Assembly (NCBI GenBank): GCA_963755025.1
Contig: CAVWIH010000026.1
Location: 32,001-96,000, forward strand
Source of the DNA: an uncultured Actinomycetes bacterium
GTDB lineage: Bacteria > Actinomycetota > Thermoleophilia > UBA2241
Reading direction: 5' to 3'
Length of the DNA stretch: 64,000 bases
In this document: one piece after another, positions 5,394 through 57,697 of the stretch
How the letters are laid out: each line of letters starts with the position of its first letter
How positions within the stretch are numbered: the first letter of the stretch is position 1
Translations under genes and position numbers: made by a program
Notes under the pieces: generated by a model
Told to the model about the DNA's origin: nothing
Database searches by the model: none
The model's input: only the letters and a program-made list of their open reading frames with translations

Positions 5394-5641
5394 GAGGACC
5401 GAGCGAGGCCAGCCAGCTTGGTGGTCCTCGCGGCGACTCAGAGAACCGGACTGGTGGGGCGGCGCTGCGCGCCGCCCCACCAGTCTTAGAACAGCGGATC
5501 GCTCCCGAGCACGTGGATCTCGGCGGTGCACTTGGAGCGCGTCGACGTCGAGGGTCGGCTCGGTGTGGAGGGGTGGCGGCACTTCGACGAGCCAGGGTTC
5601 GAGGTCTTTCTCGAGGGCGTGCAGGCGCTGGCTCTCGGCTC

Positions 5642-5968
5642 ATGATCGATTCGCACGACGGCTTCCCCGAATCACTGCGGGCGTTCGTCGACGGGGAGGA
5701 GTGGACCTTTGCCAAGACGATGCCCGAGTGGCCTCACGAATACATAGTCCGCGACCGGGTCGACGGGGAGCTCTTCGAGCGCCTGGTCACCCACATTCGC
5801 GACCACGGCTACGAGGGCCGCTTCTACGAGAGGGTCATCACCTACTACGAAGAGGCGGACCTGGTCTACTGGACGATGGGCGCGCCGCTCCGCGAAACGA
5901 CCATCGTCAACCGGTGTCACAGCGAAGACACTTATGCACACCGCCTCAGCCTCGGCACGCTGCCGTAG
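5642..5968 (+). CDS. Conserved hypothetical protein (WTFAKTMP..PHEY / YWTMG motif family)
   Basis: Globular, aromatic-rich 108-aa ORF with good codon usage: 'WTFAKTMPEWPHEYIVR..YWTMGAP..TTIVNR'. Confidence 0.7.
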   Translation: MIDSHDGFPESLRAFVDGEEWTFAKTMPEWPHEYIVRDRVDGELFERLVTHIRDHGYEGRFYERVITYYEEADLVYWTMGAPLRETTIVNRCHSEDTYAHRLSLGTLP

Positions 5969-30976: not shown

Positions 30977-31033
30977 AGTCCCCGCAAGCGGGGAGCGTCG
31001 GCCCAAGGCCGACGCCGCTTGCGGGGACTTTTT
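30977..31033 (+). terminator. Intrinsic terminator after the tRNA
   Basis: AGTCCCCGCAAGCGG...CCGCTTGCGGGGACT followed by a T-run. Confidence 0.75.
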
Positions 31034-31197
31034 GCGCTCCGGTCGTATTCCGACTCCTCAGGCGTCCCGCGCGACGATAGGGCCGCCCGCGGGCGCCGGC
31101 TGGCGACGCGCTGAGGTCGTCGCTGCAGATCCCACCAATGAGCTTCGTCTTGCCGCCACGCGCGGACTGCCGATGGCCGGAGGCGGCCACGTCGTTG

Positions 31198-31938
31198 CTA
31201 TGGGGACGGCGGCGCTTCGAATCTCGTCGTCAGTGACGTAGCCGCCATGGCCGCGACGAGCCTGTCGTAGTCGTACGGCACGCGCACGAATTCGGCCAAC
31301 GTCTCGCCCGTTTCGAGCCTCTCAGGTTGCACGATGGCATAACACACACGCCAGTCACCGTCCTTGGGCCTCCCGCCGCTGCCCACATTGACGAAGGCCG
31401 TGCCGTCGACCTCGCGGACGTAGGGGATGTGGGTGTGGCCAAAGATGATCGCCCGATACGGGTTCGCCGCAGCCAGGCGGGCAAGGCTGGTCTGCGGGCG
31501 ATCCTCGAAGAGGTACTCGTTGATACGCCGCGGGCTGCCATGCACGGCGAGCAGCTCGCCGGCGGGCGTCTCCAGCACGAAACGATCCACGAGGGTGCGC
31601 AGGTAGGCGCGCGTCTCGGGGTTCGTCGTCTGCTCGGTCCAGGCGAGCGAAGCGGCGCCCTCGGCGCGCTGCTCGTCGGTCTTATAGGCGCAGCCGCAGT
31701 CGCCGGTCTCGAAACCGATGCCCTGGTCGTAGTTGCCCATCACGGTGGGGATGGCGCGATCGCGCACCAGTTGGGCGACCTCGTTGGGAGAGGGACCGTA
31801 GCCCACGAGGTCGCCGAGGCAGAGCACGTCGGGCACACCTCGTCGATCGACATCGGCGAGGATGGCCTCGAGGCCGGGGAGGTTGCCGTGCACGTCGGAG
31901 AACACCGCGATCGGCCCGTTCATCGTCAGTCGCTTCAT
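31198..31938 (-). CDS. Metallophosphoesterase (YfcE/calcineurin-like), ars-cluster associated
   Basis: 'SDVHGN..CLGDLVGYG..MGNYD..HGSP..GHTH..NVGSGGRPKDGD'; CGC motif. Confidence 0.9.
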   Translation of the reverse strand: MKRLTMNGPIAVFSDVHGNLPGLEAILADVDRRGVPDVLCLGDLVGYGPSPNEVAQLVRDRAIPTVMGNYDQGIGFETGDCGCAYKTDEQRAEGAASLAWTEQTTNPETRAYLRTLVDRFVLETPAGELLAVHGSPRRINEYLFEDRPQTSLARLAAANPYRAIIFGHTHIPYVREVDGTAFVNVGSGGRPKDGDWRVCYAIVQPERLETGETLAEFVRVPYDYDRLVAAMAATSLTTRFEAPPSP

Positions 31939-31945
31939 GGCACAC

Positions 31946-32381
31946 TCACCGCGCGGCCAGCTCGTCGAGCCATTCGCGGATACGCATCTCGATGGCGTCG
32001 CGGACCTCACGATAGACCGGCAGACGTTCGTCGTGGTCGCCCTGGACGGCGTCCGGATCGGCAAACGGCCAGTGCAGCCGCGTCCCCATCCCGGGGAACG
32101 TCTTGGGACACTCGCGGTTGGCGCGCTCGCAGACCGTGATCACATAAGCCGAAGTGGAGCTTGCCGAGGTACTCGGCGAGGTCCTTGGCGCGCGCGCCGC
32201 TAATGTCGATGCCGCGCTCGGCCATGGCCTCGATGGCGAGGGGGTCGACGGTGGTCGCCTCGAGGCCGGCGCTGAACGCCTCGAAGCGATCGGGCGCCAG
32301 CTCACGCAGGAACGCCTCGGCCATCTGACTGCGGCAACTGTTGTGGACGCACATGAACAGCACCCTGGTCTTGTTGTCCAA
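31946..32381 (-). CDS. arsC: Thioredoxin-dependent arsenate reductase (LMW-PTP fold); one frameshift near 32147
   Basis: P-loop 'CVHNSCRSQMAE', 'VITVCERANREC' resolving cysteines, 'HWPFADP..VRDAI'; split across ORFs 32007..32381 and 31946..32452. Confidence 0.88.
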
Positions 32382-32449
32382 GACCGCCTCCTCCTCGACG
32401 AGTCGATGTCGCAGACTACCCGGCTTGTGTCAGGAAACGATGAGCTCGC

Positions 32450-32496
32450 CAATCATAAACGCACGTTGACCATAAAGCGAAGTGTATGCGATAATC
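32450..32496 (+). promoter_or_regulatory. SigA-like promoter with probable ArsR operator for acr3-arsR-hgcAB
   Basis: TTGACC(32466)-N18-GATAAT with extended TG; AT-rich imperfect inverted repeat CATA-N10-TATG in the spacer. Confidence 0.5.
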
Positions 32497-32536
32497 AGGG
32501 ACGCCAAACCGCTTGGATCTCGGGAGAAGACACCGC

Positions 32537-33727
32537 ATGGTGACCATAGCCAAGAAGCGCCTCTCGTTCCTCGACCGCTACCTGACGGCCTGGATCTTCC
32601 TGGCCATGGCGATCGGCGTGTTTTTGGGCTGGGCCTTTGCCGGCGTGCCCGCCTTCATCGACCGCTTCAACTCGGGCACGACCAACATCCCCATCGCCAT
32701 CGGTCTGATCGTCATGATGTATCCGCCGCTTGCCCGGGTGCGCTACGAGGAGCTCGGCGACGTCTTTCGCGACTACCGCATCCTTGGTCTCTCGCTCGTG
32801 CAGAACTGGGTGATCGGCCCGTTCCTCATGTTCTTCCTGGCGATCATCTTTCTGCACAGCTACCCGCAGTACATGGTCGGTCTCATCATGATCGGCTTGG
32901 CGCGCTGCATCGCCATGGTCATCGTCTGGAACCAGCTCGCCGACGGCGACACCGAGTACGCCGCCGGACTGGTGGCCTTCAACGCCGTCTTCCAGGTGCT
33001 CTTCTACAGCCTCTTCGCCTGGGTCTTCGTGACTAAACTGCCGCCGCTGTTCGGCTTGCACGGCGCGGCGGTCGACGTCTCGATCGGCCAGATCGCAAAG
33101 AGCGTCTTCATCTACCTCGGCATCCCGTTCCTGGCCGGTATGCTGACGCGCTACCTCGGGCTCAAGTACAAGGGCCGTGAGTGGTACGAGAAGACGTTCA
33201 TCCCGCGCATCAGCCCGCTGACACTGATCGCCCTGCTGTTCACGATCGTCGTCATGTTCAGCCTTAAGGGGCATCTCATCGTCAAACTGCCGCTCGACGT
33301 CGTGCGCATCGCCATCCCCCTGCTCATCTACTTCGTCGTCATGTTCTTCGTGAGCTTCTACCTGGGCCGCAAGATCGGCGCCGACTACTCGAAGACCGCG
33401 ACGTTGTCGTTCACGGCGGCCAGCAACAACTTCGAGCTGGCGATCGCCGTGAGTATCGCCGTGTTCGGCATCGGTTCGGGGGTGGCCTTCGCGGCCGTCA
33501 TCGGGCCCCTCGTCGAGGTGCCGGTGATGATCGGCCTGGTCAACGTGGCACTATGGATGGGGCGCAGGTACTGGGGCCTGAGCGATCAGCCCCTGCCGGC
33601 CGCGCTCGCGGCCGCACGCGACGAGGTCGCCTGCGAGCCCCAGAAAGAACACGATCGCCCTGGCGTGCAGGCGGCCACAGATGCGCCCGCACAGCCTCGG
33701 CCTACAGCTAACCCGGAGGCAAGATGA
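32537..33727 (+). CDS. acr3: ACR3 family arsenite efflux transporter
   Basis: '[69 protein letters not shown]'. Confidence 0.96.
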
Positions 33728-34122
33728 ACGTCGTCAAGAACGTTGTCAAAGAGCCCGCGACGCCCGACAGCCTTGTCGATGTGGTGCCGTTCTTCAAGGT
33801 GTTCTGCCACCCGACGCGCGCCCAGATCATCGACTTCCTGCTGAGCGGCGAACGCTGCGTCTGTGAGATGACCGGGCCGCTCGACCAGAGCCAGCCCCTG
33901 GTCTCGCACCACCTCGCCCTGCTGCGCGACGCCGGCATCGTGCGCATGCGCAGCGAGGGCGCGCGTACCTACTACTCCATCGACTGGGAGCGGTTCGACG
34001 GCGAGCTCAAGGGCTTCCTCGACTACGTCGCGCAGCGGCGCAGCGCGCCGCACCCCGCGAGCGAGACCCGCAGCGCCTGCGCGGTCGCCGCCAAGCCGGC
34101 GAAAAGGCGCAACGCCTCATGA
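33724..34122 (+). CDS. arsR: ArsR/SmtB family metalloregulator
   Basis: '[44 protein letters not shown]'; CVC As(III)-type site; ATGA overlap with the acr3 stop. Confidence 0.92.
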
Positions 34123-35415
34123 CGACAGGAAGAGAGTGGGCCATGGCAGACGACGCGACAGGTGTGAAGGAAACCGACGAGCAAGGTCCGGGAGGCGGCG
34201 CCTGCTGTAGTTCGTCGCCGGCCTCCGGCGGATCGTGCTGCGGTAGCACCGTGAAGCCTGTCACGGCGAGCTCGCAGAGCGCCTGCTGTGGCGCGCCGAC
34301 CAAACGGCCGCCACAGGAGCGCCGGCAAAGCTCCTGCTGCGGCGCACCGGCGACGCCCCCGGCCGACTACCCCTACGGCCCCGCTGCCTACGTCGTCGGC
34401 GCCACCGAGACGCCGGTCGGCGCCGTCCCCCGGGTGTCTCGCGAGGTCGCTCGCGGCGATCGCCTGGGCGCCTGGCGGGTGCGCTGGGGCTTCGGGCGCG
34501 ACGACTACCGGGTGAAGCCGGGCCTGTACGCCGTGGGAGCACCGGACGCCGCCGCGCCTGTGCTGGTCACCGCCAACTACAAGCTCACCTTCGACGCGCT
34601 GCGCTCGTCGCTCGCCGATCTCGACGCCTGGCTGCTGGTCGCAGACACGCGCGGCATCAACGTCTGGTGCGCGGCCGGCAAGGGCACCTTCTGCGCCGAC
34701 GAGGTCGCGCGCGTGGTCCACGAGACGCGACTCGCCGAGGTCGTCGCGCACCGGCGCCTCGTGCTGCCGCAGCTTGCGGCGCCGGGAGTCGCCGCTCACC
34801 AGGTCAAAGAAGCCTGTGGCTTTCGGGTGACCTTCGGGCCGGTGCGGGCCGCCGACCTGCCGGCCTTTCTGGCCGCCGGCATGAAGGCCGACTCGCGCAT
34901 GCGCGCCGTCACCTTCGATGCCCGAGAGCGCGCCGTGCTCGCGCCCGCAGAGCTGCAGGTCGCCTGGGACCGCCGCATGATGCTGGCTTACGCCGGCATC
35001 CTGGCCGTCTCGGCGATCGGCCGCGACGGCGTCTCGCTCGGCCGGGCCGCGCGCCGCGGCGCGCCGGTGGTCGGCGCCGCCTGGCTTGCCCTGCTGGCGG
35101 GTGGCGCCGTAACGCCGCTCGCCCTGCCCTGGTTGCCCGGCCGCGCCTTCTCCGCGAAAGGCGCTGTGGCCGGAGGCGTGGCGGCGGTGGGTGCCACGGC
35201 GGCTGTTTCGCCATCGGCTCTCGCCGGCCGCAAAGCTCGCCCTGCTGGCCGGCGTGCCGGCCGTCTCCTCCTATGCCGCCATGAACTTCACCGGCTCCTC
35301 GCCGATCACCTCGCCATCGGGCGTCGAGCTCGAGATGCGCCGGGCGCTGCCTTGGCAGGTCGCGGCATCGGTCGTTGCTGCCGGCGCCTGGCTTGCCAGC
35401 AGAGCGGGAAGGTGA
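34119..35415 (+). CDS. hgcA: Mercury methylation corrinoid protein HgcA with a Cys-Cys-rich N-terminal extension; one frameshift near 35220
   Basis: Cap-helix motif 'DTRGINVWCAAGKGTF' (~34659-34682), 'PGLYAVGAPD..PVLVTANYKLTFD', 'LPQLAAPGVAAH..FGPVRAADLP'; C-terminal TM domain 'LPWLPGRAFSAKG..MNFTGSSPITSPSGVELEM' (last part in ORF 35191..35415). Confidence 0.93.
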
Positions 35416-35420
35416 GTGCG

Positions 35421-35698
35421 ATGCCGAAGCTACGCTACATCGACCAGGCCGTCACCCTGCGAACTCGACGCCGGACTGTTGCAACGGTTGTGGACTGTGC
35501 GTAGCCGTCTGTCCGCGTGCCGTGTTCGCGCTCGTGAACGGCCGCGCTTCGCTGGCGGACCGAGGCGCCTGCATCGAGTGCGGCGCCTGCGCCCTCAACT
35601 GCGTGTCGGGCGCCATCAGCGTCGATCCCGGCGTAGGCTGTGCACAGGCGATCATTCACGGCTGGCTGACCGGCGGCGAGCCGAGTTGCGATTGCTAA
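35421..35698 (+). CDS. hgcB: Mercury methylation 2[4Fe-4S] ferredoxin HgcB; indels near 35460-35480
   Basis: 'MPKLRYIDQAVTL..CNGCGLCVAVCP..CIECGACALNC..PGVGCA..SCDC*'; C(M/I)ECGA and GVGCA signatures; immediately after hgcA. Confidence 0.92.
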
Positions 35699-35861
35699 GG
35701 CGATCGACGAGGCTCCGGCGTGCTCTGAGCTCGGAGCACGACCTCTGAGGCTGGGGCCGGGTCGGCTTTCCGTCAGACCGCCCCGCGCGACAATGGGGCC
35801 GTGAACCGGTCGCGGCCATCCGGGGCTGGGCGTGGCGTCCTACAACGCAGGAGGGGAGAAC

Positions 35862-36708
35862 ATGGGGCCCGAATGGAAGCTCTACGAGCGACTGCTCGCT
35901 GAACTGCCCGACGACGAGCAGGTACGCGCCTGCCTCGTGGGCAGCGCCTGGACGCTGGTCGAGGCTGCAGGGGTGGGCATGGCGATGTCGTTCCACGACG
36001 GTACCTGGCTGTCGTGCCCCACGTCGCCGATCGCCGGTCGGCCACTCGCCGAGGTGGCCGGCCAGCTGACGAGCTGGAACCTGATCGAGGCCGCCATCGG
36101 CCTGGCCGCCCTGAACGCGCACTACAACTACAGGGAGCGCGTCGAGCACTGGCTGGGCCGGCGCATCGGCGACAGCGAGGACAGCCCCGTCTTTCGCTCG
36201 CTGGAAGACGAGCTCGCGGGCACGAAGGTGGGCGTGATTGGCCACTTCCCCGGTCTCGAGCGTCTCGCCGCCCGTTGCGAGCTCACGGTCTTCGAACGCC
36301 GCCCGCAGCCAGGCGATCTGCCCGACTACGCCGAGGACTACCTGCTGCCCTCCATGGACTGGGTGCTCATCACCGGCACGGCGTTGACGAACAAGACCCT
36401 GCCCCACCTGCTCGACATCACGAGCAAGGCGCGTGTGGTGCTGGTCGGCCCGAGCGTGCCGCTCACGCCGCTGTGGTTCGAGCTCGGCGTCCACATGTTG
36501 GCCGGGAGCGTCGTGACGGACCGGGAGCGGCTGTGGCCCGTCGTGCAGGAGGGCTCCTGCTTCGAGGTGTTCAGGAACGGGGTCGCGAGGATCCAGGTCG
36601 CCGTGGACGACCTGCCCGGCGGTCGCGAGGGCGTAGCCCGGGCGGGGTCGACGTGCAGGGTCCGAGGCCGTGGGTGCGCTGCGATCAGAAAGCCGCGCTC
36701 CGTGGCGC

Positions 36709-36731
<23 letters not shown>
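35862..36731 (+). CDS. DUF364/DUF4213 Rossmann-like protein (putative heavy-metal chelation)
   Basis: 'SWNLIEAAIGLAALNAHYN..KVGVIGHFP..GDLPDYAEDYLLP..ITGTALTNKTLPHLL..LVGPSVP'. Confidence 0.8.
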
Positions 36732-38157
<1,426 letters not shown>

Positions 38158-38186
<29 letters not shown>

Positions 38187-39868
38187 CGGAGACCTCCAGC
38201 TCGGGGTAGACGGGCTGCCACATCGCTTCCTGGACGGCTTCGACTGGATCGGAGAGCTTCGCCCGCGCGACGCCCTCGGCGGCGGCCTGTCTCGCGACCG
38301 CGACGGCTACGGTAGCCGAAGCGGCTCGCAGGTTCTCGACGGCGGGCAACAGGCCCGCGCCGGGCCGGCTCACATCGACCAGTCCGGCGATCGCCTCGGC
38401 GGCAGTGAGCAGCATGGCGTCGCTGACACCCCTGGCGCGAGAGACGATCGTGCCAAGGCCGATGCCGGGGTAGACCAGGGCGTTGTTGGCCTGCCCTATG
38501 CGATAGTCGGTGCCTTTGAACGAGACCGGCTCCCAGGGGGTGCCGGTCGCCACCGAGACCGCGGCCCTCGGTCCAGCGGATCACATCGGCCGGTACGGCC
38601 TCGATCCGCTCGGTCGGGTTCGACATAGGAAAGATCATCGGCCGGTCGACGTGCTTGGCCATCTCGCGCAGGATCGGTTCGGTGAAGGCACCGCCGACGG
38701 TCGAGGTGCCGACGATGATCGTCGGACGGACCTCGCCACGACCTCGCGAGATCCGATCGCGTCGTCGCGCCCATTGCGCTCCAGCCGGCCACCTCCGGCC
38801 GCGCGGTCGCGCGTAGGGCTTTTGGAAGTCTCGCAGGTCCGTCATGTCGTCGACCAGCAATCCCTGCTTGTCGACGCACCAGAACTGCGCGGTTGCGGCA
38901 TCGATGCGGTCAGGCCGTCGTTGACCATGATGACCCGGATCTGATCGGCGATGCCGATGCCGGCCGTGCCCGAACCGAAGATGACGACTCGCTGCTCGCT
39001 CGGGGCGGTTCCAGCCACACGCAGGCCGGCCAGTGCGGCGGCGAGGATGATCGCACCGGTTCCTTGGATATCGTCGTTGAAGACGGGAGCAGTGTCCCGG
39101 TACTTGTTCAGGATGCGCCTCGCGTTGGAAGGTCCGAAGTCCTCGAAGTGCAAGAGGGCCTTCGGGAACCGACTGCCTGGCCGTCTTGACGTAGCCGTCG
39201 ATGAACGCGTCGTAGCGTGGGCCGCGCACCCGACTGTGGTGATTGCCGACGTACAGTGGATCGTTGAGTAGCGACTCGCGGTCGGTGCCTACATCGAGCA
39301 TCACCGGGATCACGCGTTCGGGGTCTATGCCGGCCGCCGCCGTGTAGACCGCGAGCTTGCCGATCGAGATGGCCATGCCGTTGGCGCCCCAGTCGCCGAT
39401 CCCGAGGATCTCTTCGGCGTCGGTGGCGACCAGCAGGTCGACGTCGTCGGCGCCGAGCCCGTAGTTGCGAAAGGCGGTCTCGATGCCGGCGTCGTCGTCG
39501 ATGGAGAGGTAGACCCCGCTGGGTCGGCGGTACTCGTGGCTCAGGCGCTCTATCGCCTGGGCGATCACGGGATCGTACACGACTGGCAGCATCTCGGTGA
39601 GATGGTCGGCCAGCAGCTTGTAGTAGAGGACCTGATTGCGCTCCTCGAGGGCGGCCAGAAAGGTGTTGCGCGCCAGGTCGTCGGGCTGAGCCCGATACTG
39701 CGCGTAGGAGCGCTTCGCCTGCTCTTCCAGGGTGAGGACCGCTGCGGGCAACAACCCGTCCAGGCCCAGGACAGTGCGCTCCTCGTCAGTGAACGCCGTC
39801 CCGCGATTGAAGCGCGAGTCGTGCAGCAGAGCCCGTCCGCTGGAAAGCTTCGTCGGTTTCGTCGACAT
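38158..39868 (-). CDS. NAD-dependent malic enzyme; several apparent frameshifts
   Basis: '[18 protein letters not shown]', '[13 protein letters not shown]', '[14 protein letters not shown]', 'G.GTAGIGIA', 'FPMSNPT', '[16 protein letters not shown]'. Confidence 0.9.
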
Positions 39869-39966
39869 GGTGGCCCACTCCCTTGGGCGCCACCCTGCGG
39901 CACTTCACGTGGCCGCCCGTCGTGGTCTTTTGGGATTTTCGGTCTGGGTACCCAGACGGGCACGCC

Positions 39967-41028
39967 TTAGGCCGCGGCCTCCGTCGTCGCCTCCTGTGCC
40001 AGCGGCTGCGCCGGCACGACGTACGGGAAGCGGCCGGCGCGAAGATGCCGGGCCACCGAGGGCGTGAGGCCCGAGGGCACGGCGGCGTTGGCGACGAGGG
40101 ACAGCATGACCTCCGGCGCGTTGTCGGCCAGCGTGCGCCCGTTGAAGGCGGCGAAGCCGTACATCGCCGGCGTCCCGATCACGTAGGGCAGGACGTCGGG
40201 GAACAGGCGCCGCGCCACGGTCTGGCCGTAGCCCTCGGGGTCGTCCGAGGTGCCGCTCGCCGACACGACAGCCGCGACCTGCTTGCCGATGTACTCCGCG
40301 GCCGCCTCGACGTCGGCCGACGGGTGCCGGGTGTTGGCGGGGTTGGAGAAGTCGGTGTCGTGCGGCCAGAAGATCGGCCACATCATGGGGTGACCGGCGC
40401 GGTTGATCTGTCGCCAGCCGCCCGCATCGGTGGCGAGCTTAGTCGCGGCCCAGACGCCGATGCGGCGGCCGGGGCGCAGCTGGCCATCCCGGTGCGATAT
40501 CTCCAGCACGATCGATTCGACCGTCGTGTCGGCAAAGCTGTTGCGCGCGGTCTCGGGGCGCCACGCCGACAGGTCGACGGCAGTGCCGTTCTTGATCGCG
40601 GCGTCCACGATGTCCAGGAGCGAGAGGTCGATGTAGAACGAGTCGTTGATGCGCCCGGCCCAGATCCGCGCGCCGCTTGCCGTCGCCGGCTCGCCTGTGC
40701 GGCCTTTGAGCACAAGCTCACCGGCCTCGGCGTCGTCGCGCGCCTGGTCGCCGGTGATGGCGTGCAGTTGCAGGTACTGTCGACCATCCGCCTCTGGTGC
40801 GCCAAAGGACACGCGGTAGGTCAGCGCCTCGAACTCGGCTCCGTCGATGTGCACCTTGAACTCGTACCGTGCCTCGTGGTGAAAACCCGGCTGCACGTGG
40901 ACCCCAGTGACGTCGGAGTTGACGTCCATCACGAACACCGTGCTGTTGTCGCCCTGAAAGACGTACAGGTCGTCGAGGTAGAGCTGGCCGTTCTGACTTG
41001 CAAGAGGCGTGTCGAGATGATGCGACAT
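39967..41028 (-). CDS. DUF4331 family protein
   Basis: 'MSHHLDTPLA..LYLDDLYVF..IWAGRINDSFYID..WRQINRAGHP..LFPDVLPY..NGRTLADN..FPYV'; AAGGAGG RBS. Confidence 0.8.
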   Translation of the reverse strand: MSHHLDTPLASQNGQLYLDDLYVFQGDNSTVFVMDVNSDVTGVHVQPGFHHEARYEFKVHIDGAEFEALTYRVSFGAPEADGRQYLQLHAITGDQARDDAEAGELVLKGRTGEPATASGARIWAGRINDSFYIDLSLLDIVDAAIKNGTAVDLSAWRPETARNSFADTTVESIVLEISHRDGQLRPGRRIGVWAATKLATDAGGWRQINRAGHPMMWPIFWPHDTDFSNPANTRHPSADVEAAAEYIGKQVAAVVSASGTSDDPEGYGQTVARRLFPDVLPYVIGTPAMYGFAAFNGRTLADNAPEVMLSLVANAAVPSGLTPSVARHLRAGRFPYVVPAQPLAQEATTEAAA

Positions 41029-42632: not shown

Positions 42633-44908
42633 TCAGGCCTCTTCAAAGGCGAAGCGCCCTTCGCGCATGAGGCGCAGGCAGGCCGCGCAGACCGCGGTGT
42701 CGTAGCGGCGGCCGCTGCCCTTCTCGATCTCGGCGAGGGCGGCCTCGAGCGGCAGGCGCGGGGCGGTAGGGCCGGTGGCTGACCATCGCCTCGACGATGT
42801 CGGCCACCGCCAGGACGCGCGCCTCGGGAAGGATCTCCGCCGCCCTTCAGACCGGCCGGGTAGCCCGAGCCGTCGAGGCGCTCGTGGTGCTGGCGCACCA
42901 TCGCCGCGACGTCGCCGCCGAAGTCGATGTCGGCGAGGATCTCGGCGCCGGCCGCGGCGTGCTGGCGGATCAGCAGGAACTCGGTCGCGTTCAACGTGCC
43001 CGGCTTGCTCAGGATCTCGGCCGGCACGATGATCTTGCCGAGGTCGTGGAGCAGCGCGGCGATGCGCAGCAAGGCGATCCGCTCCTCGCTCCCAGCCGAG
43101 CTCGGCGGCGAGCGCGCAGGCGAGCTGCGGCCACGCGGCGCTGATGACCGGCGGTGTAGGGGTCGCGCAGCTCGGCCGTCGTGCCCAGCGCGGCGACGCC
43201 GGCCTGCAGGGTGCGCTCGAGCCGCGCCGTCGTGTGCGCGAGCTCGCGCTCGGTGCGCTTGCGGGCGGTCACGTCGCGGACCACGCTCAGCAGGAGGGTC
43301 TCGCCGCCGAGCGTGGCGACGCCGCGGGCGCTCACCTCGACGGGGAACACCGAGCCGTCCTTGCGGCGATGCTCGGTCTCGAAGAGGACGCCGCCGGCCG
43401 CCGCCGCGCTCGATCTGCTCCGCGAGCAGCGGGCTCGCGGCCCATCGGTGCGCAGGGCGCGAGATGTCGAGCTCGCAGGAGCTCCTCGCGCGTGTAGCCG
43501 TAGGCCGCCTCGGCGGCCGCGTTGGCCTCGACGATGCGGCCGTCGGTGGCGCGCACGAAGAGCATGATGTCGCGCGCCTCGGCGAACAGCAGCCGGTAGC
43601 GCGGCAGCAGGTCGTCGGCCCGGCGGCGCTCGCTCACGTCGACGTCGGCGACGTAGACGCGATCGAAGGTGTCCTCGTGACCGGGGGCGACGATGCAGGT
43701 CTCCATCACGTGCAGCGCGCGGCCGGCGAGCGTCAGGTTGATCTCCTCGTAACTGGCGTGCGCCCGCCGGCCAGCATCGCCGCCCAGAAGACGGCAAGCC
43801 CCCGGGAGCCGGGCGGATAGAGTCGGCCTGGCGCTCGAGCAGCTCCTCGCGGCTCGACGCCTCGAGAGCGCCACGGCGGCGTGGTTCACGTCGAGGGTGC
43901 GGGCCAGCGACACGCAGCGGCGTACTCGGCCGGGTGCTCGCGCAGGAAGCTCGCGAGGTCGTCGACCCCCGAGGCCATGAGCTGCTCGAGATAGGCCTTG
44001 GCCGCCGAGTGGTCCTCTTCCCACAGGGCCACCGGCGAGTCCTCGAAGAGCGGAGCGGTAGCGGCGCTCGCTCTCGGCGAGCGCCTCCGGTCGCGCACTC
44101 TGCGGGCGGTGACGTCATGTGTGACGCCGAGCACCGCCATGATCTGATCGTCGTCGTCGAAGCGCGACAAGCCGCGTGTTCACCCAGCGCTCGCCGTTGG
44201 GGTAGACGATCTGCGATTCGGTCTCGTGGGGTTCGCCGGTCGCCAGCACGTTCTCGACGGCCGCCATGATCCGGGTCGCGGTCGGGCCCTGGAACATGGT
44301 CGTGAGCGGCGTGCCGACGAGCTGCTCGGCGGGCACGCCGAAGCTCGTGCGCCGCGGTCGTTCACGAACTGCACGCGGCCGTCGGCGCCGACCAGGTAGA
44401 TCATGTCGGGCGAGGCCTCGGTGACCAGGCGGTAGCGCTGTTCGCTGACGCTCAAACGGCGCTCGCTCAGCACGCGGTCGGTGACGTCGCGGGCGCTGAT
44501 CAGGATGCCGCGCACGGCTTCATCGTCGAGGTGGCTGCTGGCCGTCCACTCGATCCAGTGCAGTGAGCCGTCCTTCGCGCGGATGCGCGTGGTCCCCGTG
44601 CTGGGCGCCGGGTCGGTCGCCGCGCTCGCCCGCGGATGGAGGGCCGCGAGCTGCGCCAGATCGTCGTCGGGGATGAGCTCGTAGGCGATCAGGCCCGTGA
44701 CTTCGTCCTGGCTGTACCCGATGAGGCGCTCCACCGAGGGGCTGCAGTACGTCACCCGGGCGTCGGCATCGACGATGAGAAGCAGGTCGGAGCTGTGCTC
44801 CACGAGCAGCCGTAAGCGGCGTTCGTCGGCGCTTGCACTCGCGCTCGCCGGCGCGCCGCCGTTCGGCGGGCGCCTGGACGTCCCTGGACCTGTGCTGCTG
44901 CGGCCCAA
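42633..44908 (-). CDS. Multi-PAS/PAC HD-GYP cyclic-dinucleotide phosphodiesterase; many apparent frameshifts
   Basis: Several PAS/PAC segments ('LVEHSSDLL..RIRAKDGSLHWIE..RDVTDR', 'HRRKDGSVFPVEVS'); 'RDPYTAGHQRRV', 'LLHDLGKI.VPAEILSKPG.L', 'QHHERLDGSGYP', 'VADIVEAMVSHRPYR'. Confidence 0.85.
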
Positions 44909-49529: not shown

Positions 49530-50299
49530 GCGCGACGATCTGCCTGCGCGGCGTCGCCAAGCGCTACGAGACCGGTCGCGACCGACCTGTCGAAGCCTTG
49601 CGCGCGATCGACCTCGACATCGATCGGGGGGAGTTCGTCGTCGTCACCGGTCGTTCGGGGGCGGGCAAGACCACCCTGCTCAACGTGGTCGCCGGCCTCG
49701 CGCGACCGACCAGCGGCACGGTCACGGTCGACGGGGTCGACCTCTGGCAGCTTTCCGACCGGCGACTCTCGCGCCTGCGCAACCGGCGCATGGGCTGCGT
49801 CTTTCAGTTTCCCAGCCTGCTGGCATCGCTGCCCGTCCTGCAAAACGTGCTGCTACCGCTCTCGTTTGCCGGCGCCGCAGACGGCGCTGGGCGAGCGCGG
49901 GCCGTCGAGCTGCTGACCATGGTCGGTCTCGGTGACAGGCTGACGGCGTATCCGCGGCAACTGTCGGCGGGCCAGCAGCAGCGCGTCGTCGTCGCCCGGG
50001 CGCTCGTCAACCGTCCCGCGCTGTTGCTGGCCGACGAACCAAGTAGCGACCTCGACGAGGGGACCGAGGCCGAGATCATGGACCTGTTCCGCCGCGTGCA
50101 CGCGGAGACCGGCGTGACGATCGCCCTGGTCACCCACACCACGCAGCTCGTCGCTTACGGCACGCGCCACATCGCCATGGCGGAGGGGGCGATCGCCGCC
50201 GCCGCATGTCCTGGGGGCGGCGCGCGCCTGCCGGGCGCGGCCGACGCGCCGGCCGATGTCCGTTGGGCCTCGCCTGCGGGGAAGACTGCAGACCTATGA
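49526..50299 (+). CDS. ABC transporter ATP-binding protein (LolD/MacB-like)
   Basis: Walker A 'GRSGAGKTT', 'LSAGQQQRV', 'LLADEP'; ATGA overlap. Confidence 0.92.
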   Translation: MSATICLRGVAKRYETGRDRPVEALRAIDLDIDRGEFVVVTGRSGAGKTTLLNVVAGLARPTSGTVTVDGVDLWQLSDRRLSRLRNRRMGCVFQFPSLLASLPVLQNVLLPLSFAGAADGAGRARAVELLTMVGLGDRLTAYPRQLSAGQQQRVVVARALVNRPALLLADEPSSDLDEGTEAEIMDLFRRVHAETGVTIALVTHTTQLVAYGTRHIAMAEGAIAAAACPGGGARLPGAADAPADVRWASPAGKTADL

Positions 50300-51125
50300 T
50301 CGCCTACATCACCATCAATATCGACCCCATCATCGGCCACCTCGGTCCCTTCGCCGTGCGCTGGTATCCGCTGATCATGGTCCTCGGGGTCATCGTCGGC
50401 GCCTTCATCTTCGCCGGTCAGCTGCGCCGTAAGGGCATCGAGTCGGGGCACGTGACCGCCATGCTCGCCGTCGTCGTGCCCAGTGCGATCGTCGGCGCCC
50501 GCCTCTTCAGCGTGCTCGACAACTGGAGCTACTACTCGCACCACCTGCTCGCCATCGTCAAACCGCCCTACGTGGGCCTGGCGATCTACGGCGTGCTCAC
50601 CGGCGGCCTGCTCGCCCTGGCCATCTACTGCCGCGTGAAGAAGCTCCCCGTGCTGCGCGTGCTGGACTGCCTCGCCCTGGCCATCCCGGTCGGCCAGATC
50701 ATCGGTCGATGCGCCAACATCATCAACGGCGACACCTGGGGCTCGCCCACACGGCTGCCGTGGGGCTTTGTCTACACCAATCCGCACGCCTGCTGCCGGC
50801 CGACCTGCTCGGCGTGCCGACGCACCCCACGCCGGTCTACGAGCAGCTCTGGCTGGCAGTCATGGTCGCCATCCTCTGGTATGCCGTGCCACGACTGAAG
50901 ACCGACGGCATGGCCATACTGCTCTATCTCGGTCTCTACTCGTTCGGCCGCTTCTTCATCTCGTTCTACCGGGTCAACAACATCATCGTGCTCGGCCTGA
51001 GGGAGGCGCAGATCGTCGCCCTGGTCGTGCTCGTGGCGGTGGGACCGGCGGCGTGGCTGCTGCGCCGCCGCGCCCGGCGAGCGGGTGCCGCGGCAGCCCC
51101 CACACAACGGCGACGCGCCGCCTGA
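50296..51125 (+). CDS. lgt: Prolipoprotein diacylglyceryl transferase; frameshift near 50790
   Basis: 'IDPII.HLGPFAVRWY..GARLF..GLAIYG..GQIIGRCANIINGD.WG..LPWG..HPTPVYE..YSFGRFFI..R'. Confidence 0.85.
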
Positions 51126-51158: not shown

Positions 51159-52637
51159 CTATCGCACCGCGACGCCCTTCTCGGCGGCTGCGGCGGCGAT
51201 GACGTTTTCGATGTGCTGGGCGGCGCCGTCGGGCAGCGGCAGGGGGTGGTGGGTGGCGAGGATCTCGTCGACCCTGTCGGTGACGCGTTGCGCTTCGGAT
51301 CTGCCCTCGGCCACCCAGCCGTCGTACGAGCCGCGCACGAAGAGCTGCGGCAGCTGCAGCTCGCCGCTGCGCAGGAAGCGGCGCGTCTCGCGGGCGGCCA
51401 GGAAGTGGCCGCCCGGCCCCACCCGCGCCGTGACGTCGAACATGACGTGCTCGTCGTCGAAGGCGACGCCGGCCATGAGGCGCTGGCCCTGGCGGATGAG
51501 CTCGGCGTCGAGCAGCATCTTGGGCAGGTAGAGCAGCTGGGCCGAGTCGAGCATGCCGACGCCGGTCAGCAGGTCGGCTCCGGCGAGCATGGTGCAGTAC
51601 GCCATCGGCGCGCCGTCGGAGCCGACCTGCACGCAGAGCTCCTTGGCGTCTGACGACAGGCCGCAGGAGAGCACCGGCACGCCGTAGTGGCGCCCCATCT
51701 CGGTGAGCGCCAGGTTGAGCAGGACCTCTTCGGGGCCGGCCGAGGTGTAGGTCGAGGTGCGCATGTCCATGATGCCGGCGTTGCCCACGTAGATCAGCGG
51801 GCAGCCCGGCACGGCGAGCTGCAGGATGGCGAAGGCGGCCAGGCCCTCGGCGTTGGTCTGCACGGCGGTGCCGGCCAGGGTGAGCGGCGCGGTGGCGCCG
51901 GCCATGGCCAGGCTGTAGACGGTGATGGGCACGCCCTGCTCGGCGAGCAGGATGGCCGCCTCGAGGCTGTCGGCGTCGTGCTGCAGCGGGCTCACCGGGC
52001 AGTAGACGATCGAGAAGATGGGGCGCTCGGGCCGCCACACGCCGCCCGGGCTCGCGGCCGCGAGGATCTCCATGACGTAGGGCACGTCGGCGGGGTCGGT
52101 GACCTCGCCCTGCACGTGCTTGGCGCTGCCGGTGAGCATGGCCTGCAGGCCGCGCAGCGACTGCAGGTCGGGCTCTTCGTCGCAGGGGTAGGCGGTGTAC
52201 CAGAGCACGCCGACCTCGTCGAGCGCGTCGGCGACGGTCATGGCCTCGCGCAGGTCGCGGGCCGTCGAGGGGCGCCGCTCGCCGGTACGGTGGTCGAGGC
52301 ACATGGCGCCCATGCCGTCGTGGGTGGCCCAGGTGCGCGTGTGGTCGAGCAGCGCGTCCTTTTCGGGGTCGCGCGCGGCCAGCAGCACGTGCTGGGGGGC
52401 GCGGGCGAGGGCCGACTCGACGAGCTCGCGCGGCAGGCGCACGATCTGCGTCTCTTCGTCGACCGCGGCGCCCGCGTCGCGCAGCAGCGCCTGGGCGCGG
52501 GCCAGCGGCACGCGCACGCCGACCTCGGCGAGCAGCCGCAGCGACTGCGCGTGCACGTAGTCGATGGCCGCTTCGTCGAGCATGCTCAGTCGCGGGCGCA
52601 GCACGCCGGCGAAGCCGCCGCCCGTCGGGGAGCTCAT
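51159..52637 (-). CDS. Trimethylamine methyltransferase (MttB) superfamily protein, non-pyrrolysine type
   Basis: 'VHAQSLRLLAEVGV..LARAP..LAARDP..PVSPL..MAGATAPLTLAGT..NAE.LA..DMRT..GPGGHFL..T'; no in-frame TAG. Confidence 0.9.
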   Translation of the reverse strand: MSSPTGGGFAGVLRPRLSMLDEAAIDYVHAQSLRLLAEVGVRVPLARAQALLRDAGAAVDEETQIVRLPRELVESALARAPQHVLLAARDPEKDALLDHTRTWATHDGMGAMCLDHRTGERRPSTARDLREAMTVADALDEVGVLWYTAYPCDEEPDLQSLRGLQAMLTGSAKHVQGEVTDPADVPYVMEILAAASPGGVWRPERPIFSIVYCPVSPLQHDADSLEAAILLAEQGVPITVYSLAMAGATAPLTLAGTAVQTNAEGLAAFAILQLAVPGCPLIYVGNAGIMDMRTSTYTSAGPEEVLLNLALTEMGRHYGVPVLSCGLSSDAKELCVQVGSDGAPMAYCTMLAGADLLTGVGMLDSAQLLYLPKMLLDAELIRQGQRLMAGVAFDDEHVMFDVTARVGPGGHFLAARETRRFLRSGELQLPQLFVRGSYDGWVAEGRSEAQRVTDRVDEILATHHPLPLPDGAAQHIENVIAAAAAEKGVAVR

Positions 52638-52761
52638 GCGAGCACCAGGCCGAAGCCGCCGCTGCGCGGCCGGCCGGCGAACAGGTTCCGTTTCACGCGG
52701 TGACCTCCGTTCGGGGAGCGAGCATACCGGCGACCGCGTGGGGCGGGGCCGGTGACTGCGC

Positions 52762-53656: not shown

Positions 53657-54498
53657 CTACCCCAGGATGAGGCGCTGCGGGTCGACCTCGTCGCGCAGGA
53701 TGCGCAGCTCGTCGGCGGTCGGCGGCACGGCGTCGACGGCGCGCGAGGTGTCGAGCGCGAATCCCGTGTTGTCGGCGATGTGGGCGTCGCTCACGCCGGG
53801 GTAGCGCTCGGCCAGGTACATCTCGTGGCTGGTCTCGTCGAACTTGAGCACGCAGAGGTCGGTGACCACGGCCAGCGGGCCGCCGCGGCGAAAGCCGGCC
53901 TTGTGGCGGCTGTCGCCGCCCTCGAGCCAGCCGGGGCTCGTGAGGTAGTCGAGGCGTCTCCACGAACTTGCGCCGTCCGTGCTGCATGAAGACGATGAAG
54001 GCCGAGGCCAGCGAGGCCGCGTCGCTGGCGCCGCCGCTGCCCGAGAAGCGCACGGTGGGGTGCTCGTAGTCGCCGATGCAGGTCGAGTTCAGGTTGCCGT
54101 AGCTTGTCGATCTGGGCGGCTCCCAGAAAGGCGATCGTGTGCAGCCGCGGGCTGGCGATGTACGAGAACGCCTCGATGATGCCGGCGTTGATGCAGGTGC
54201 CGTCCATGACGCGCGGGTCGGCCACCGCGAGCGGGATCTCGTCGAGCGACGGGTCGATGCCGCCGGTCTCGACGAACACCACGGCGCCCGGCGCGTGGAT
54301 GCGCTTTGCGCAGCCGGCGGCGAGCAGCGCCACGCCGGTGCCGGCGAACAGGATGTCGCCGTCCGACACAAAGCGCCCGGCGGCGATCGCCATCATCTCG
54401 CGCGGGGTGAAGGGTTGCGTGTTGGCCACGGGCTGCGCGTCGGCCAAAGGCTGCGCGTCGGCCGTTCGCTGCGCGTCGCTGTCGAGTCGCTCGCTCAT
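53657..54498 (-). CDS. Family I CoA-transferase beta subunit (GctB-like); frameshifts near 54100 and 53955
   Basis: 'EMMAIAAGR..GDILFAGTG..FLGAAQIDK/YGNLNSTCIGDYEHP.VRFSGSGGASD..TSPG..VVTDLCVLKFD..PPTADELRILRDEVDP'. Confidence 0.88.
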
Positions 54499-54502
54499 CG
54501 CC

Positions 54503-55496
54503 TCACCGCCTGTCCAGTCCGATGGCGTAGCCGCGCACCGGGTCGGCCTTGATGCGCGCGAGCTGGTCGGCGCCGATCTCTGGCCACGTACTCGTCGTGG
54601 CCGGCGAGCGCCGTAGACCCACTCGTCGAGAAACGCCGCCCAGGCCTGGTCGTCGCGCGCGGCGCGCGCGTAGTCGTTCAAAAAGCCGGGGTCGTAGTCG
54701 TAGAAGAAGCGGCAAGCGGTGGGGTGGGCGCCGTAGTGGCACGCACACGATGGCGTCGACCAGGAACGGCGGCAGCGCGTTCTGGTCGGGGTCGGCGCGC
54801 AGCGTCGGCGGCCGGCACGATCTCCTCGCAGGTCACGACGACCGCCTTGGCGGCCTTGGCCTGCTCCAAGTCGGCGAAGGTCAGGCCCTTGATGCGCACG
54901 GTGCCGTCGTCGCCCACGGTCTGCACGTGCAGCACGGTCAGGTCGGGCGTGAGGGCGGGCAGCAGCACGAGGTCGCCGCCGTCGGCCTCGCCGTCGCCGT
55001 CAAACGGGTCGGGCATGACGACGAGCTTCTGGGCGGGCAGGCCGTGGGCGGCTCGGTAGGCCGGCGAGAAGCCCTGACGGGCGACGAGGTCGGTGTGCAG
55101 GCCCGACTTGGTGGGGATGAAGGGCACGTTCAGCGCGCCCGCCAGAAAGCGCAGCGCCATGTGGTAGTTGGAGTAGTCCTCGACAGCGACCTCGCCGCGC
55201 TCGGCCGCGCGGCGAAAGCGCACGCAGGTGGGGGCGAAGCGGCCGTTGCCGCCGTAGGCCACCTCGATGCGGCTCACGCAGCCGGCCCCGACCAGCGTGT
55301 CGAGCGCCTGGCCGTTGGAGTGCGCCACGAGGTGCAGGCCGCGCACGCGGCGGCGCGCCATCTCGTAGACGAAGGCCATGGGGTTGCGGTTGATGGTGAA
55401 GCCGCCCAGGGCCACCACGCCGCCGTCGTGCGCAAAGCGCTCCACGGCGTCGCCTAGGGTCGTGAGCTTGCCGCCGATGTCTGACGCCGCAGTCAC
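54503..55496 (-). CDS. Family I CoA-transferase alpha subunit (GctA-like); frameshifts in the 3' third
   Basis: 'KLTTLGDAVERF..VALGGFTINRNPMAFVYE..RFLAGALNVPFIP..PALTPDLTVLHVQ..VVVTCEEIV'. Confidence 0.88.
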
Positions 55497-56112: not shown

Positions 56113-56461
56113 CCCGAAGGGCCGCAACGACAGGCGGAGGCGAGTAGCCCGAGGGGCTCGGCGCCGACGGGCGGCGGGTTGCCACGGCGCCGGAGGCGTG
56201 GCCCGAGGGGCCGCGACGGACCAGTCGCCCGGCCGGCGCGGGACACGCCGTCACGTTGTCGGCGGCGCGGCGGCGCGTATATGATTCGTGGTGCTGCACA
56301 CATGGCTCGGCGCGGCCTTTCCGGTCGGCGCCGCAGCGGCCATGAGCCCCCAGCGAGCGCACACGGCGCGTCTCTGGGGGCGTTCTTGCTTTTCGGGGGC
56401 GCCGGACGCGCGATGGCGAGCAAGAGCGCGGCCGGTCGCCGGTCGCGACGAGGAGGAGCGC

Positions 56462-57697
56462 ATGGACTTCAGGTACTCGACCGAGCAGAACCTTTACCGC
56501 CAGGCCATCCGCGAGTGGCTCACCAAGAACCTCGAGCCGCGCGCCCGCGCCATCGACGCCGCCGAAGACGGCATTCCCGACGACATCACGGCCGGCATGG
56601 CCGAGCTCGGCATCTTCGGCGTGACCATCCCCGAGGAGTACGGCGGCCTGCCGCTGCCCGACGACGAGCGCCTGATCTACGCCATGATCACGGTCCACGA
56701 GATCGCCCGCGCCGACCTAGTCGATGAGCACGCCGGTCTACACGCTGCTCACCATGGGCTGGTCGTACATGATCAACCGCTACGGCACCGAGGAGCTCAA
56801 GCAGGAGGTCCTGCCGCTGGCCGCCCAGGGCAAGACCTTCGTGGGCATCAACACCACCGAACCCGGCGGCGGCTCCGACCTGGGCGCCATCAAGACCACC
56901 GCCATCTGGAACGACGACAAGCAGGTCTTCATGCTGAACGGCGAGAAGGCCTACGTCTCCGGCCCCAAGGAGTGCGCCAAGCTGGGTCCGCCCAGCGGCC
57001 ACTGCACGCTGGTCAAGACCGACCCCGACTCGGGCCACAAGGGCATGACCTTCATCTGGGTGCCCGCCCACCTGCGACGGCATCCAGTGACACGTCTACG
57101 ACGACATGGGCCGCATGGGCCTGTCGACCGGCGGCTGGATCTACAACGACGTCGAGCTGCCCCGCAAGTACGTGCTGGGCGAAGAGGGCAAGGGCTTCTA
57201 CGCCGTCATGGACGGCTTCAACACGGCGCGCGTGCTGGTCGGCGGCCGCCTGTCTGGGCGGCGCCGAGAAGGCGCTCGAGATCAGCGGCGAGTACACCGC
57301 GCAGCGCACCACGTTCGGCAAGCCGCTCGGCAAGAACGAGGGCATCTCGTTCGAGATGGCCGACGACTGGATGATGCTCGACATGGTCAAGCTCAACCTG
57401 CTGCGCGGCGCCTGGATGATCGGCCAGGAGCACACCAACCCGGGCACGTTCTCGCGCAAGGAGATCAACAAGGTCATCAGCACCTGCAAGTGCCAGGCGC
57501 CGCCGCTGGCCCACGAGATCGCGCGTCACGGCATGATGTACCACGGCGCCTTCGGCTACACCAAGGAGACGCCGCTCGAGATGATGCTGCGCGGCGTCAT
57601 GAGCTACGAGGTCGGCGCCGAGGGCGGCCTCATGGTCATGCGCGGCGTGATCGCCCGCGACGAGTGGGGCGAGACGCACAACCCGTTCAAAGACTAG
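56462..57697 (+). CDS. Acyl-CoA dehydrogenase; several frameshifts
   Basis: 'MDFRYSTEQ..IPEEYGG..TEPGGGSDL..LNGEKAYVSG..GEEGKGFYAVMDGFNTARV..QRTTFGKPL..HGAFGYTKE'. Confidence 0.92.
   Translation: MDFRYSTEQNLYRQAIREWLTKNLEPRARAIDAAEDGIPDDITAGMAELGIFGVTIPEEYGGLPLPDDERLIYAMITVHEIARADLVDEHAGLHAAHHGLVVHDQPLRHRGAQAGGPAAGRPGQDLRGHQHHRTRRRLRPGRHQDHRHLERRQAGLHAERREGLRLRPQGVRQAGSAQRPLHAGQDRPRLGPQGHDLHLGARPPATASSDTSTTTWAAWACRPAAGSTTTSSCPASTCWAKRARASTPSWTASTRRACWSAAACLGGAEKALEISGEYTAQRTTFGKPLGKNEGISFEMADDWMMLDMVKLNLLRGAWMIGQEHTNPGTFSRKEINKVISTCKCQAPPLAHEIARHGMMYHGAFGYTKETPLEMMLRGVMSYEVGAEGGLMVMRGVIARDEWGETHNPFKD

Follow-up and report, generated by a model that had tools for sequence, protein, structure and literature searches.

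The window analysed here, a 64,000-nucleotide stretch of a contig (C26) from an uncultured actinobacterium, carries genes for an arsenite efflux permease (acr3), an ArsR/SmtB-family repressor (arsR) and the mercury-methylation proteins HgcA and HgcB (hgcA and hgcB, together hgcAB), one after another on the same strand. A sequence-only reading of the window had proposed this tightly packed order, with an arsenate reductase gene (arsC) facing the other way. Profile searches and direct reading bore out the gene identities and the packing, and located the divergent arsC at 32381 down to 31946. The features on which the argument turns are the following, in coordinates of the window.

31198..31938, minus strand: metallophosphoesterase gene (Metallophos_2, Pfam match), downstream of arsC
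31946..32381, minus strand: arsC, arsenate reductase of the low-molecular-weight phosphatase type (LMWPc, TIGR02689, TIGR02691), divergent from acr3
32451..32495, plus strand: promoter and probable ArsR operator, a sigma-70-like site in a conserved patch; ArsR binding is predicted
32537..33727, plus strand: acr3, arsenite efflux permease (TIGR00832), with a C-terminal tail of ~50 residues
33724..34122, plus strand: arsR, ArsR/SmtB repressor (HTH_5, NF033788), with ERCVCEM at the alpha-3 metal-site position
34143..35415, plus strand: hgcA (NF040863); ATG 34119 is a possible earlier start in the same frame
34143..34424, plus strand: N-terminal extension of HgcA with four Cys-Cys pairs, conserved in homologues
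34659..34682, plus strand: HgcA cap-helix motif NVWCAAGK, by direct translation
35421..35698, plus strand: hgcB, ferredoxin gene (NF040864), lying in three frames in the window

Neighbouring genes in this series overlap or nearly touch. The stop codon of acr3 (TGA 33725-33727) shares an ATGA with the start of arsR at 33724-33727, and a second ATGA, read directly like the first, joins arsR to hgcA at 34119-34122. The stop codon of hgcA occupies 35413-35415, and the ATG of hgcB follows 5 nucleotides (nt) later, at 35421. The first overlap and the 5-nt gap lie exactly where the sequence-only reading had put them. Its third claim, that hgcA starts within the second ATGA, stands as far as the overlap itself goes: the ATGA is present in the window and is kept in the related genomes G011, G009 and G001, with GTGA in G014. 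Gene calls in homologues, however, favor another start codon, located 24 nt farther on (ATG 34143 in the window) and preceded by AGGAAGAG; this start (ATG or GTG) is likewise conserved, behind a purine-rich stretch. The gap between arsR and hgcA is at most 21 nt whichever start is used, and this junction geometry (overlap or no more than 21 nt) is conserved across two genera. At the head of the series, acr3 probably starts at ATG 32537 with GGGAGAAG upstream, a start and Shine-Dalgarno sequence kept in five genomes. The C-terminal tail of Acr3 and the acr3/arsR ATGA are both kept in G011 and G009.

The two arsenic genes on this strand are clear family members. Acr3 matched TIGR00832 over profile positions 1-327 of 327 with 455.9 bits (456.5 in a second search; cut-off, 282.8). 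ArsR matched HTH_5 at 8.6e-15 and NF033788 with 81.9 bits (cut-off, 55) and has the ArsR/SmtB winged-helix fold, and its ERCVCEM aligns with ELCVGD of SmtB (1r1t) at the alpha-3 position. The CVC triplet is kept in six ArsR orthologues, which are 59-91% identical to the window protein in as many relatives, and also in a paralogue encoded on contig C14 of the same genome. It is located in the first helix of the helix-turn-helix, where the classical ArsR of plasmid R773 has its As(III) site.

HgcA exceeded the cut-off of the HgcA equivalog NF040863 (275 bits) with profile positions 1-255 alone (342.9-343.7 bits); positions 263-323 were found in the next frame and added a separate match of 57.6-60.9 bits. 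As to whether this is a true HgcA or a fused or CdhD-like paralogue, a question that the sequence-only reading had raised, the protein stays below the cut-offs of both the HgcAB-like fusion model (HgcAB_like, 202 bits; cut-off, 285) and the CdhD-type model (PRK04165, 87 bits; cut-off, 306). The cap helix of HgcA is defined by N(V/I)WCA(A/G)GK, whose cysteine is the cobalt ligand. NVWCAAGK is intact at 34659-34682, as had been read from the letters, and its residues are invariant in the whole-protein alignment of homologues. For HgcB, the two CxxCxxCxxxC motifs noticed earlier are present as CNGCGLCVAVC (35480-35512) and CIECGACALNC (35570-35602). With its pieces scored unjoined, the largest frame piece of HgcB reached 94.3 bits against NF040864 (cut-off, 99), since the first 11 profile positions sit in other frames. 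The intact HgcB of G011, 93% identical to that of the window, reached 113.7 bits, and the G011 orthologues of HgcA and HgcB both exceed their family cut-offs.

The ends of these two proteins deserve separate mention. HgcB of the window terminates in ...EPSCDC (35690-35698), with two cysteines one residue apart instead of an adjacent terminal Cys-Cys pair, and a CDC or CDCG tail is also found in relatives from the Thermoleophilia clade. In Haft et al. (10.1101/2022.07.06.499078), Cys-Cys is reported as the last two residues of nearly all HgcB proteins. At the other end of the pair, the first 94 residues of HgcA contain four Cys-Cys pairs. At least one such pair is present in the N-terminal extension in 58 of 90 aligned HgcA rows (two of the rows being duplicates), and all 10 metagenome contigs examined read from the extension into the core without a change of frame. 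Haft et al. 2022 (10.1101/2022.07.06.499078) also describe HgcA extensions with CC and a selenocysteine version, PCUGP. The last pair of the window, SSCCGAP, sits where PCUGP sits; compared with that description, the version seen here is all-cysteine with four pairs and is accompanied by an HgcB ending in Cys-Asp-Cys. As the extension is widespread and already described, we do not present it as a new feature. A phase-variable switch at the C5 run at the junction of extension and core (34428-34432) is not supported, the 10 metagenome contigs all being in frame and several of them having no such run. As a separate observation, the upstream frame in many Desulfobacterota hgcA loci (L061, L066, L067, L085, L087, L097, L099, L109 and others) begins with GP... 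directly after a stop codon, as would be expected if that stop were the selenocysteine codon of PCUGP.

We next consider how the series might be expressed. A consensus scan of 31900-37000 found one sigma-70-like site, TTGACC-18-GATAAT at 32466-32495 with TG preceding the -10 (shuffled sequences averaged 0.1 sites), and no terminator-like site. The single promoter/operator patch that had been proposed upstream of acr3 thus corresponds to a single recognizable promoter lying in a conserved, operator-like patch. This 45-nt patch (32451-32495) is conserved in all five genomes compared (that of the window, G011, G009, G014 and G003); G003 keeps it although its acr3-arsR is not followed by hgcAB. 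The patch contains two CATAAA(C/G)NNNA(C/A)GT boxes 17 nt apart that overlap the -35 TTGACC. Exact inverted repeats were absent from 32370-32545, and the proposal of an operator therefore rests on conservation and on the two direct boxes.

The 3.37-Mb genome contains the core of the patch, TTGACCATAAA, at exactly two places, both upstream of acr3 genes. One is that of the window, and the other belongs to a module on C14 (~205650-207900) made up of a phosphoesterase gene and acr3-arsR. A gene convergent with arsR follows it, and neither arsC nor hgcAB is present in the module. Its acr3 promoter combines the TTGACCATAAA core with two exact CATAAACAGAAGT boxes. The C14 ArsR is 56% identical to that of the window and ends in CAC-Gly, and the two repressors may cross-regulate both promoters. 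A metallophosphoesterase gene adjoins acr3 modules in relatives too, as it does in the window and on C14.

The source of the window is a soil or peat actinobacterium of the class Thermoleophilia. Its bin (G000) consists of 39 contigs totaling 3.37 Mb with 70.7% G+C and is 84% complete and 5% contaminated. The closest HgcA cores, 72-87% identical, belong to records whose titles read Thermoleophilia bacterium or Actinomycetota/Actinomycetes bacterium (L033-L038; P0090), and a second tier at 45-60% identity is mostly from Desulfobacterota. The description of the source as a deep-branching actinobacterium is therefore a fair label, the nearest named relatives being Thermoleophilia metagenome-assembled genomes (MAGs; L033-L035, P0090). 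Among 61 searched genomes of the class, 10 (G000 counted) encode an HgcA above the cut-off; G003, in which hgcA is present as two pieces, comes in addition to these. We know of no cultured actinobacterial methylator.

To describe recurrence, we counted 13 unique loci of the Thermoleophilia clade besides the window, after dropping two duplicates (L036, identical to L023, and L038, identical to L029). The order acr3-arsR-hgcA-hgcB on one strand was found in six of them (G014, G011, G009, G001, L033 and L034). One of the six, L033, has a small thioredoxin-like open reading frame (...GSGCANCQKL...) inserted between arsR and hgcA at ~5430-5820, and it retains a duplicate of the last ~60 nt of arsR immediately before hgcA. 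Outside the clade, arsR lies within 1 kb upstream of hgcA on the same strand in 13 of 75 loci, and acr3 is present in the flanks of two (L087, on the opposite strand, and L106, with the order acr3-arsC-hgcAB). Both counts are lower bounds, because nine of the 75 loci had less than 1 kb of upstream sequence and because the proteins of the window served as queries at E <= 1e-5. The 13 arsR genes outside the clade encode proteins 33-41% identical to the window ArsR, with CxCG in alpha-3 and CYC in the wing.

As assembled, the window does not read all of these genes in one frame. Alignment to four relatives placed single extra bases at ~35211 in hgcA, at ~35460 and ~35479 in hgcB and at 32148 in arsC. 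The first shifts the last 68 codons of hgcA to the next frame, the second and third split hgcB over three frames, and the fourth splits arsC, whose matches to LMWPc, TIGR02689 and TIGR02691 cover the N-terminal half only. Indels near 35220 and at 35460-35480 had been flagged by the sequence-only reading and are indeed present in the window; the base at 32148 adds a fourth. The extra G near 35211 is missing in three relatives, the hgcB bases in four and the 32148 base in G011.

We also aligned Logan contigs from four public runs, each belonging to a different study (X1-X4), to 31000-40000, judging the hgcA and hgcB sites from the lengths of contig pieces and 32148 from 12 of the 28 indel rows. 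The base at 32148 was omitted in all three runs that cover it (one contig each from X1, X2 and X3; X4 does not cover the site). For every contig piece crossing the hgcA and hgcB sites, the shortfall in length relative to the window equaled the number of sites crossed: one letter for X4 rec29 and X3 rec19, which span 35211, and two for X2 rec13 (spanning 35211 and 35460) and X3 rec20 (spanning 35460 and 35479). X1, the best holder, does not count as independent support, because it is possibly the window's own sample. P0065, a database protein with 100% identity to the window, is continuous across 35211. Other genes of the window are affected as well; between 37 and 58 kb, at least six more are cut into 2-4 pieces in differing frames.

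37080-37810: fumarase gene, split
38170-39830: malic enzyme gene, split
42750-44810: HD/PAS gene, split
50296-51077: lgt, split
53660-54504: CoA-transferase gene, split
56444-57688: acyl-CoA dehydrogenase gene, split

No split segments were found before 31 kb, where long genes are whole. The other acr3 of the genome, that of C14, is also split. Frame breaks in the window are thus dense in 31900-57700 compared with 1-31000, and the quality of the assembly seems to vary from one part of the contig to another. Because the relatives and the contigs of the four runs are free of the extra bases and unrelated nearby genes are equally split, the breaks in hgcA, hgcB and arsC are almost certainly assembly errors. 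The sequence-only reading had named indels that persist in accurate reads as the mark of pseudogenes; in the contigs of the four public runs, the extra bases are missing. The acr3-arsR-hgcA-hgcB unit is real and, in our view, almost certainly intact in nature.

The account that we favor, and judge to be rather likely, is that of a genuine Thermoleophilia arsenic-resistance operon with the mercury-methylation pair appended, P(ars)-acr3-arsR-hgcA-hgcB, which arsenite would induce. In this scheme, arsC and the phosphoesterase gene would be read the opposite way from the shared intergenic region. ArsR would bind the patch overlapping the -35 and the spacer, and As(III) binding at the CVC site would cause it to release the DNA. 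One transcript would then run from acr3 through hgcB, and HgcAB would be made when the cell meets arsenite. We infer such an ArsR-repressed, arsenite-induced transcript from the single promoter, the conserved patch common to the two acr3 genes and the CVC site.

Several observations weigh against this account. In seven of the 13 clade loci, hgcAB does not follow acr3-arsR: in G003 it lies across the phosphoesterase gene, adjoining acr3-arsR; in G016 only a divergent arsC is present; in L037 acr3 is on the opposite strand; and in G004, G031, G017 and L035 the flanks contain no matches to acr3, arsR, arsC or the phosphoesterase gene, with G017 offering only 1.9 kb upstream. G004, G003 and L037 have another ArsR-family type (GRxCC...CVCEF) beside hgcA. 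As hgcAB occurs elsewhere or beside a different ArsR, the window-type ArsR is not required for it, and the "hard-wired" linkage announced by the sequence-only reading is not a fixed one, even among close relatives. On the tree of HgcA cores, the acr3-arsR label needs four changes, of which well-supported branches force at least two. The promoter scan covered the sigma-70 consensus only, and a promoter inside arsR is possible because actinobacterial promoters are often weaker matches to that consensus. X1-X4 are assembled contigs of unknown library type, and two of their pieces (X1 rec4 and X4 rec27) are without one further letter somewhere in 34368-34587. This segment of the window is colinear with homologues. 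P0065 was called from GTG 34479 and not from the ATG upstream of it, and the Cys-rich extension may be out of frame in the X1/X4 population. Since the extension is in frame in all 10 metagenome contigs, we take the window's reading of 34368-34587 to be the normal one.

As a side observation, this third ArsR type (...GRxCC...P...G(I/V)CVCEF...) stands divergent or co-directional beside hgcA in L026 (G004), L032 (G003) and L037, and it also occurs ~5-6 kb from hgcA in L031 (G016) and L034.

Several of these points bear on an alternative that we consider unlikely but the strongest of the rivals, in which the genes are neighbors without co-regulation: hgcAB would be transcribed from a separate promoter, located within the 3' portion of arsR or the 21-nt gap, and the adjacency would reflect a metal(loid) neighborhood that often rearranges. 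Such mobility fits the several contexts of hgcAB within one genus (G003, G004 with a divergent ArsR-family gene, and G016 with arsC only) and the scatter of the arrangement on the HgcA tree, and L033 keeps its copy of the arsR 3' tail before hgcA as if it were needed for hgcA expression. This alternative would leave unexplained that we found no promoter-like site in 32496-37000 and no terminator-like site in 31900-37000, and that neighboring genes overlap at their stop and start codons or are separated by at most 21 nt, in a geometry conserved across two genera. The idea that the indels are real, and that hgcA, hgcB and arsC are decaying pseudogenes, is the least probable of all. It draws on the four frame breaks in three genes of the window as assembled, on the one-letter difference of the X1 and X4 contigs in 34368-34587, which would break the frame, and on the internal GTG from which P0065 was called. 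Every one of the four breaks, however, is one extra base missing in close relatives; 32148 is omitted wherever it is covered and the pieces over 35211, 35460 and 35479 are correspondingly shorter; P0065 is intact through 35211; and six unrelated genes are fragmented in the same stretch while genes before 31 kb are whole.

Two further possibilities concern what the unit senses and makes, and both strike us as improbable, though less so than gene decay. The repressor might respond to Hg(II) or to soft metals generally, so that the unit would answer thiol-reactive metals and methylation would be part of how the cell deals with mercury. A cysteine pair forms the sensing site and by general chemistry also binds Hg(II), and the N-terminal tail of HgcA carries four Cys-Cys pairs; on the other hand, acr3 and arsC, the other genes of the unit, are arsenic-specific, and the same operator precedes the second acr3-arsR module, which is without hgcAB. 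Alternatively, HgcAB might itself be a corrinoid-dependent arsenic methylase in an operon under an As(III) repressor, with arsenite as its native substrate and in the stead of ArsM, and mercury methylation would then be a side reaction switched by arsenite. A search of the 84%-complete genome found no ArsM (best match, 49.9 bits; cut-off, 263). If this last idea were true, arsenite would switch on mercury methylation in peat and soil.

Whichever of these holds, the purpose of HgcAB and the control of its expression bear on where methylmercury forms. For the arsenic-resistance operon that we favor, the locus offers a clean natural case, with a classical CVC-type ArsR, one promoter with a conserved operator-like patch, and hgcAB no more than 21 nt from the repressor gene, and several uncultured Thermoleophilia from soil and peat share this arrangement. 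This clean anatomy makes arsenite-inducible mercury methylation directly testable with the cloned unit, for which the C14 acr3-arsR module, with the same operator and without hgcAB, is a built-in comparison.

Downstream of hgcB, two more features complete the region.

35701..35833, no strand assigned: ~133-nt stretch between hgcB and the next gene, missing in G011 by DNA alignment
35862..36731, plus strand: DUF4213 + DUF364 gene (Pfam), "putative heavy-metal chelation"

The unit possibly ends with the DUF4213 + DUF364 gene, whose distance from hgcB is 163 nt in the window compared with ~28 nt in G011 (L024 9447-10214), the only one of the related loci in which it was seen beside hgcAB. The 163-nt intergenic region (35699-35861), which includes the ~133-nt insert, folds no better than shuffled sequences (z = -0.31), and the insert is not repeated elsewhere in the genome. 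A minus-strand match to RF03158 (the L31-Actinobacteria ribosomal leader) at 35753-35815 scored 32.9 bits, below the gathering score of 35 (E = 0.0013). It falls inside the stretch missing in G011, no L31 gene lies downstream, and the match is probably due to chance. A riboswitch or mobile repeat in this interval was accordingly dropped from consideration, given the ordinary folding, the lack of genomic copies and the sub-threshold Rfam match. Farther away, 16 kb from hgcAB, an intact gene of the MttB family (trimethylamine methyltransferase-like) occupies 51165-52640 on the minus strand; this family consists of corrinoid-dependent methyltransferases.

Compared with known systems, the unit most resembles an ordinary arsenic operon with an addition. 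Canonical ArsR-repressed ars operons contain acr3 and a thioredoxin-type arsC. Repressor, permease and reductase are all present in the window, and the promoter overlaps an operator-like patch; in contrast to the canonical form, hgcA and hgcB, and possibly the DUF364 gene, are added after arsR, and arsC is divergent.

The association itself has been reported before. McDaniel et al. 2020 (PMC7438021) described hgcA-positive Thermoleophilia MAGs from permafrost and lakes and found acr3, arsC, arsM and arsR flanking hgcAB in diverse methylators. Peterson et al. 2025 (PMC11984097) reported that many hgcA genes are preceded by arsR-like genes and have acr3 or arsC close by, which was linked to lower hgcA expression, and both papers hypothesized a link between arsenic handling and mercury methylation. 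In another study, 14 of the 31 confirmed methylators had an arsR ahead of hgcA (PMC10349881). According to Gionfriddo et al. (10.1101/2022.10.17.512643), hgcAB of Pseudodesulfovibrio mercurii ND132 is under the control of an ArsR-like regulator that responds to arsenic. The idea linking hgcAB to arsenic, which the sequence-only reading had put forward, had thus already been published (PMC7438021, PMC11984097, PMC10349881, 10.1101/2022.10.17.512643): linkage of this kind, hgcA in this lineage and the hypothesis can all be found in the literature. The same gene families adjoin hgcAB in the MAG neighborhoods of PMC7438021 and PMC11984097. Relative to those two papers, what differs is that order, junctions and promoter/operator are resolved here to the base and that recurrence is counted (6/13), although the exact neighborhood of the window may already be drawn in figures or tables of PMC7438021.

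The experimentally studied counterpart is arsR2-hgcA-hgcB of ND132, which resembles the window in having an ArsR-family gene immediately before hgcAB in the same orientation. In ND132, arsR2 is reported to be co-transcribed with hgcAB and arsenic-responsive (10.1101/2022.10.17.512643), the locus has no other ars gene, and the authors describe the metal-binding region of its regulator as distinct. The arsR genes found ahead of hgcA in the 13 loci from Desulfobacterota and other groups, ND132 not among them, differ from that of the window, which is CVC-type and stands behind acr3. Because the window ArsR departs from the Desulfobacterota types in identity (33-41%) and in its cysteines, the ND132 finding cited in the sequence-only reading carries over by analogy only and does not count as evidence from an orthologue. 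The locus therefore adds detail to a published idea rather than a new one, and would not surprise a specialist. To that idea it contributes the base-level anatomy of the unit, a repressor of the canonical CVC type, an operator-like patch common to a second ars module, and recurrence within the Thermoleophilia.

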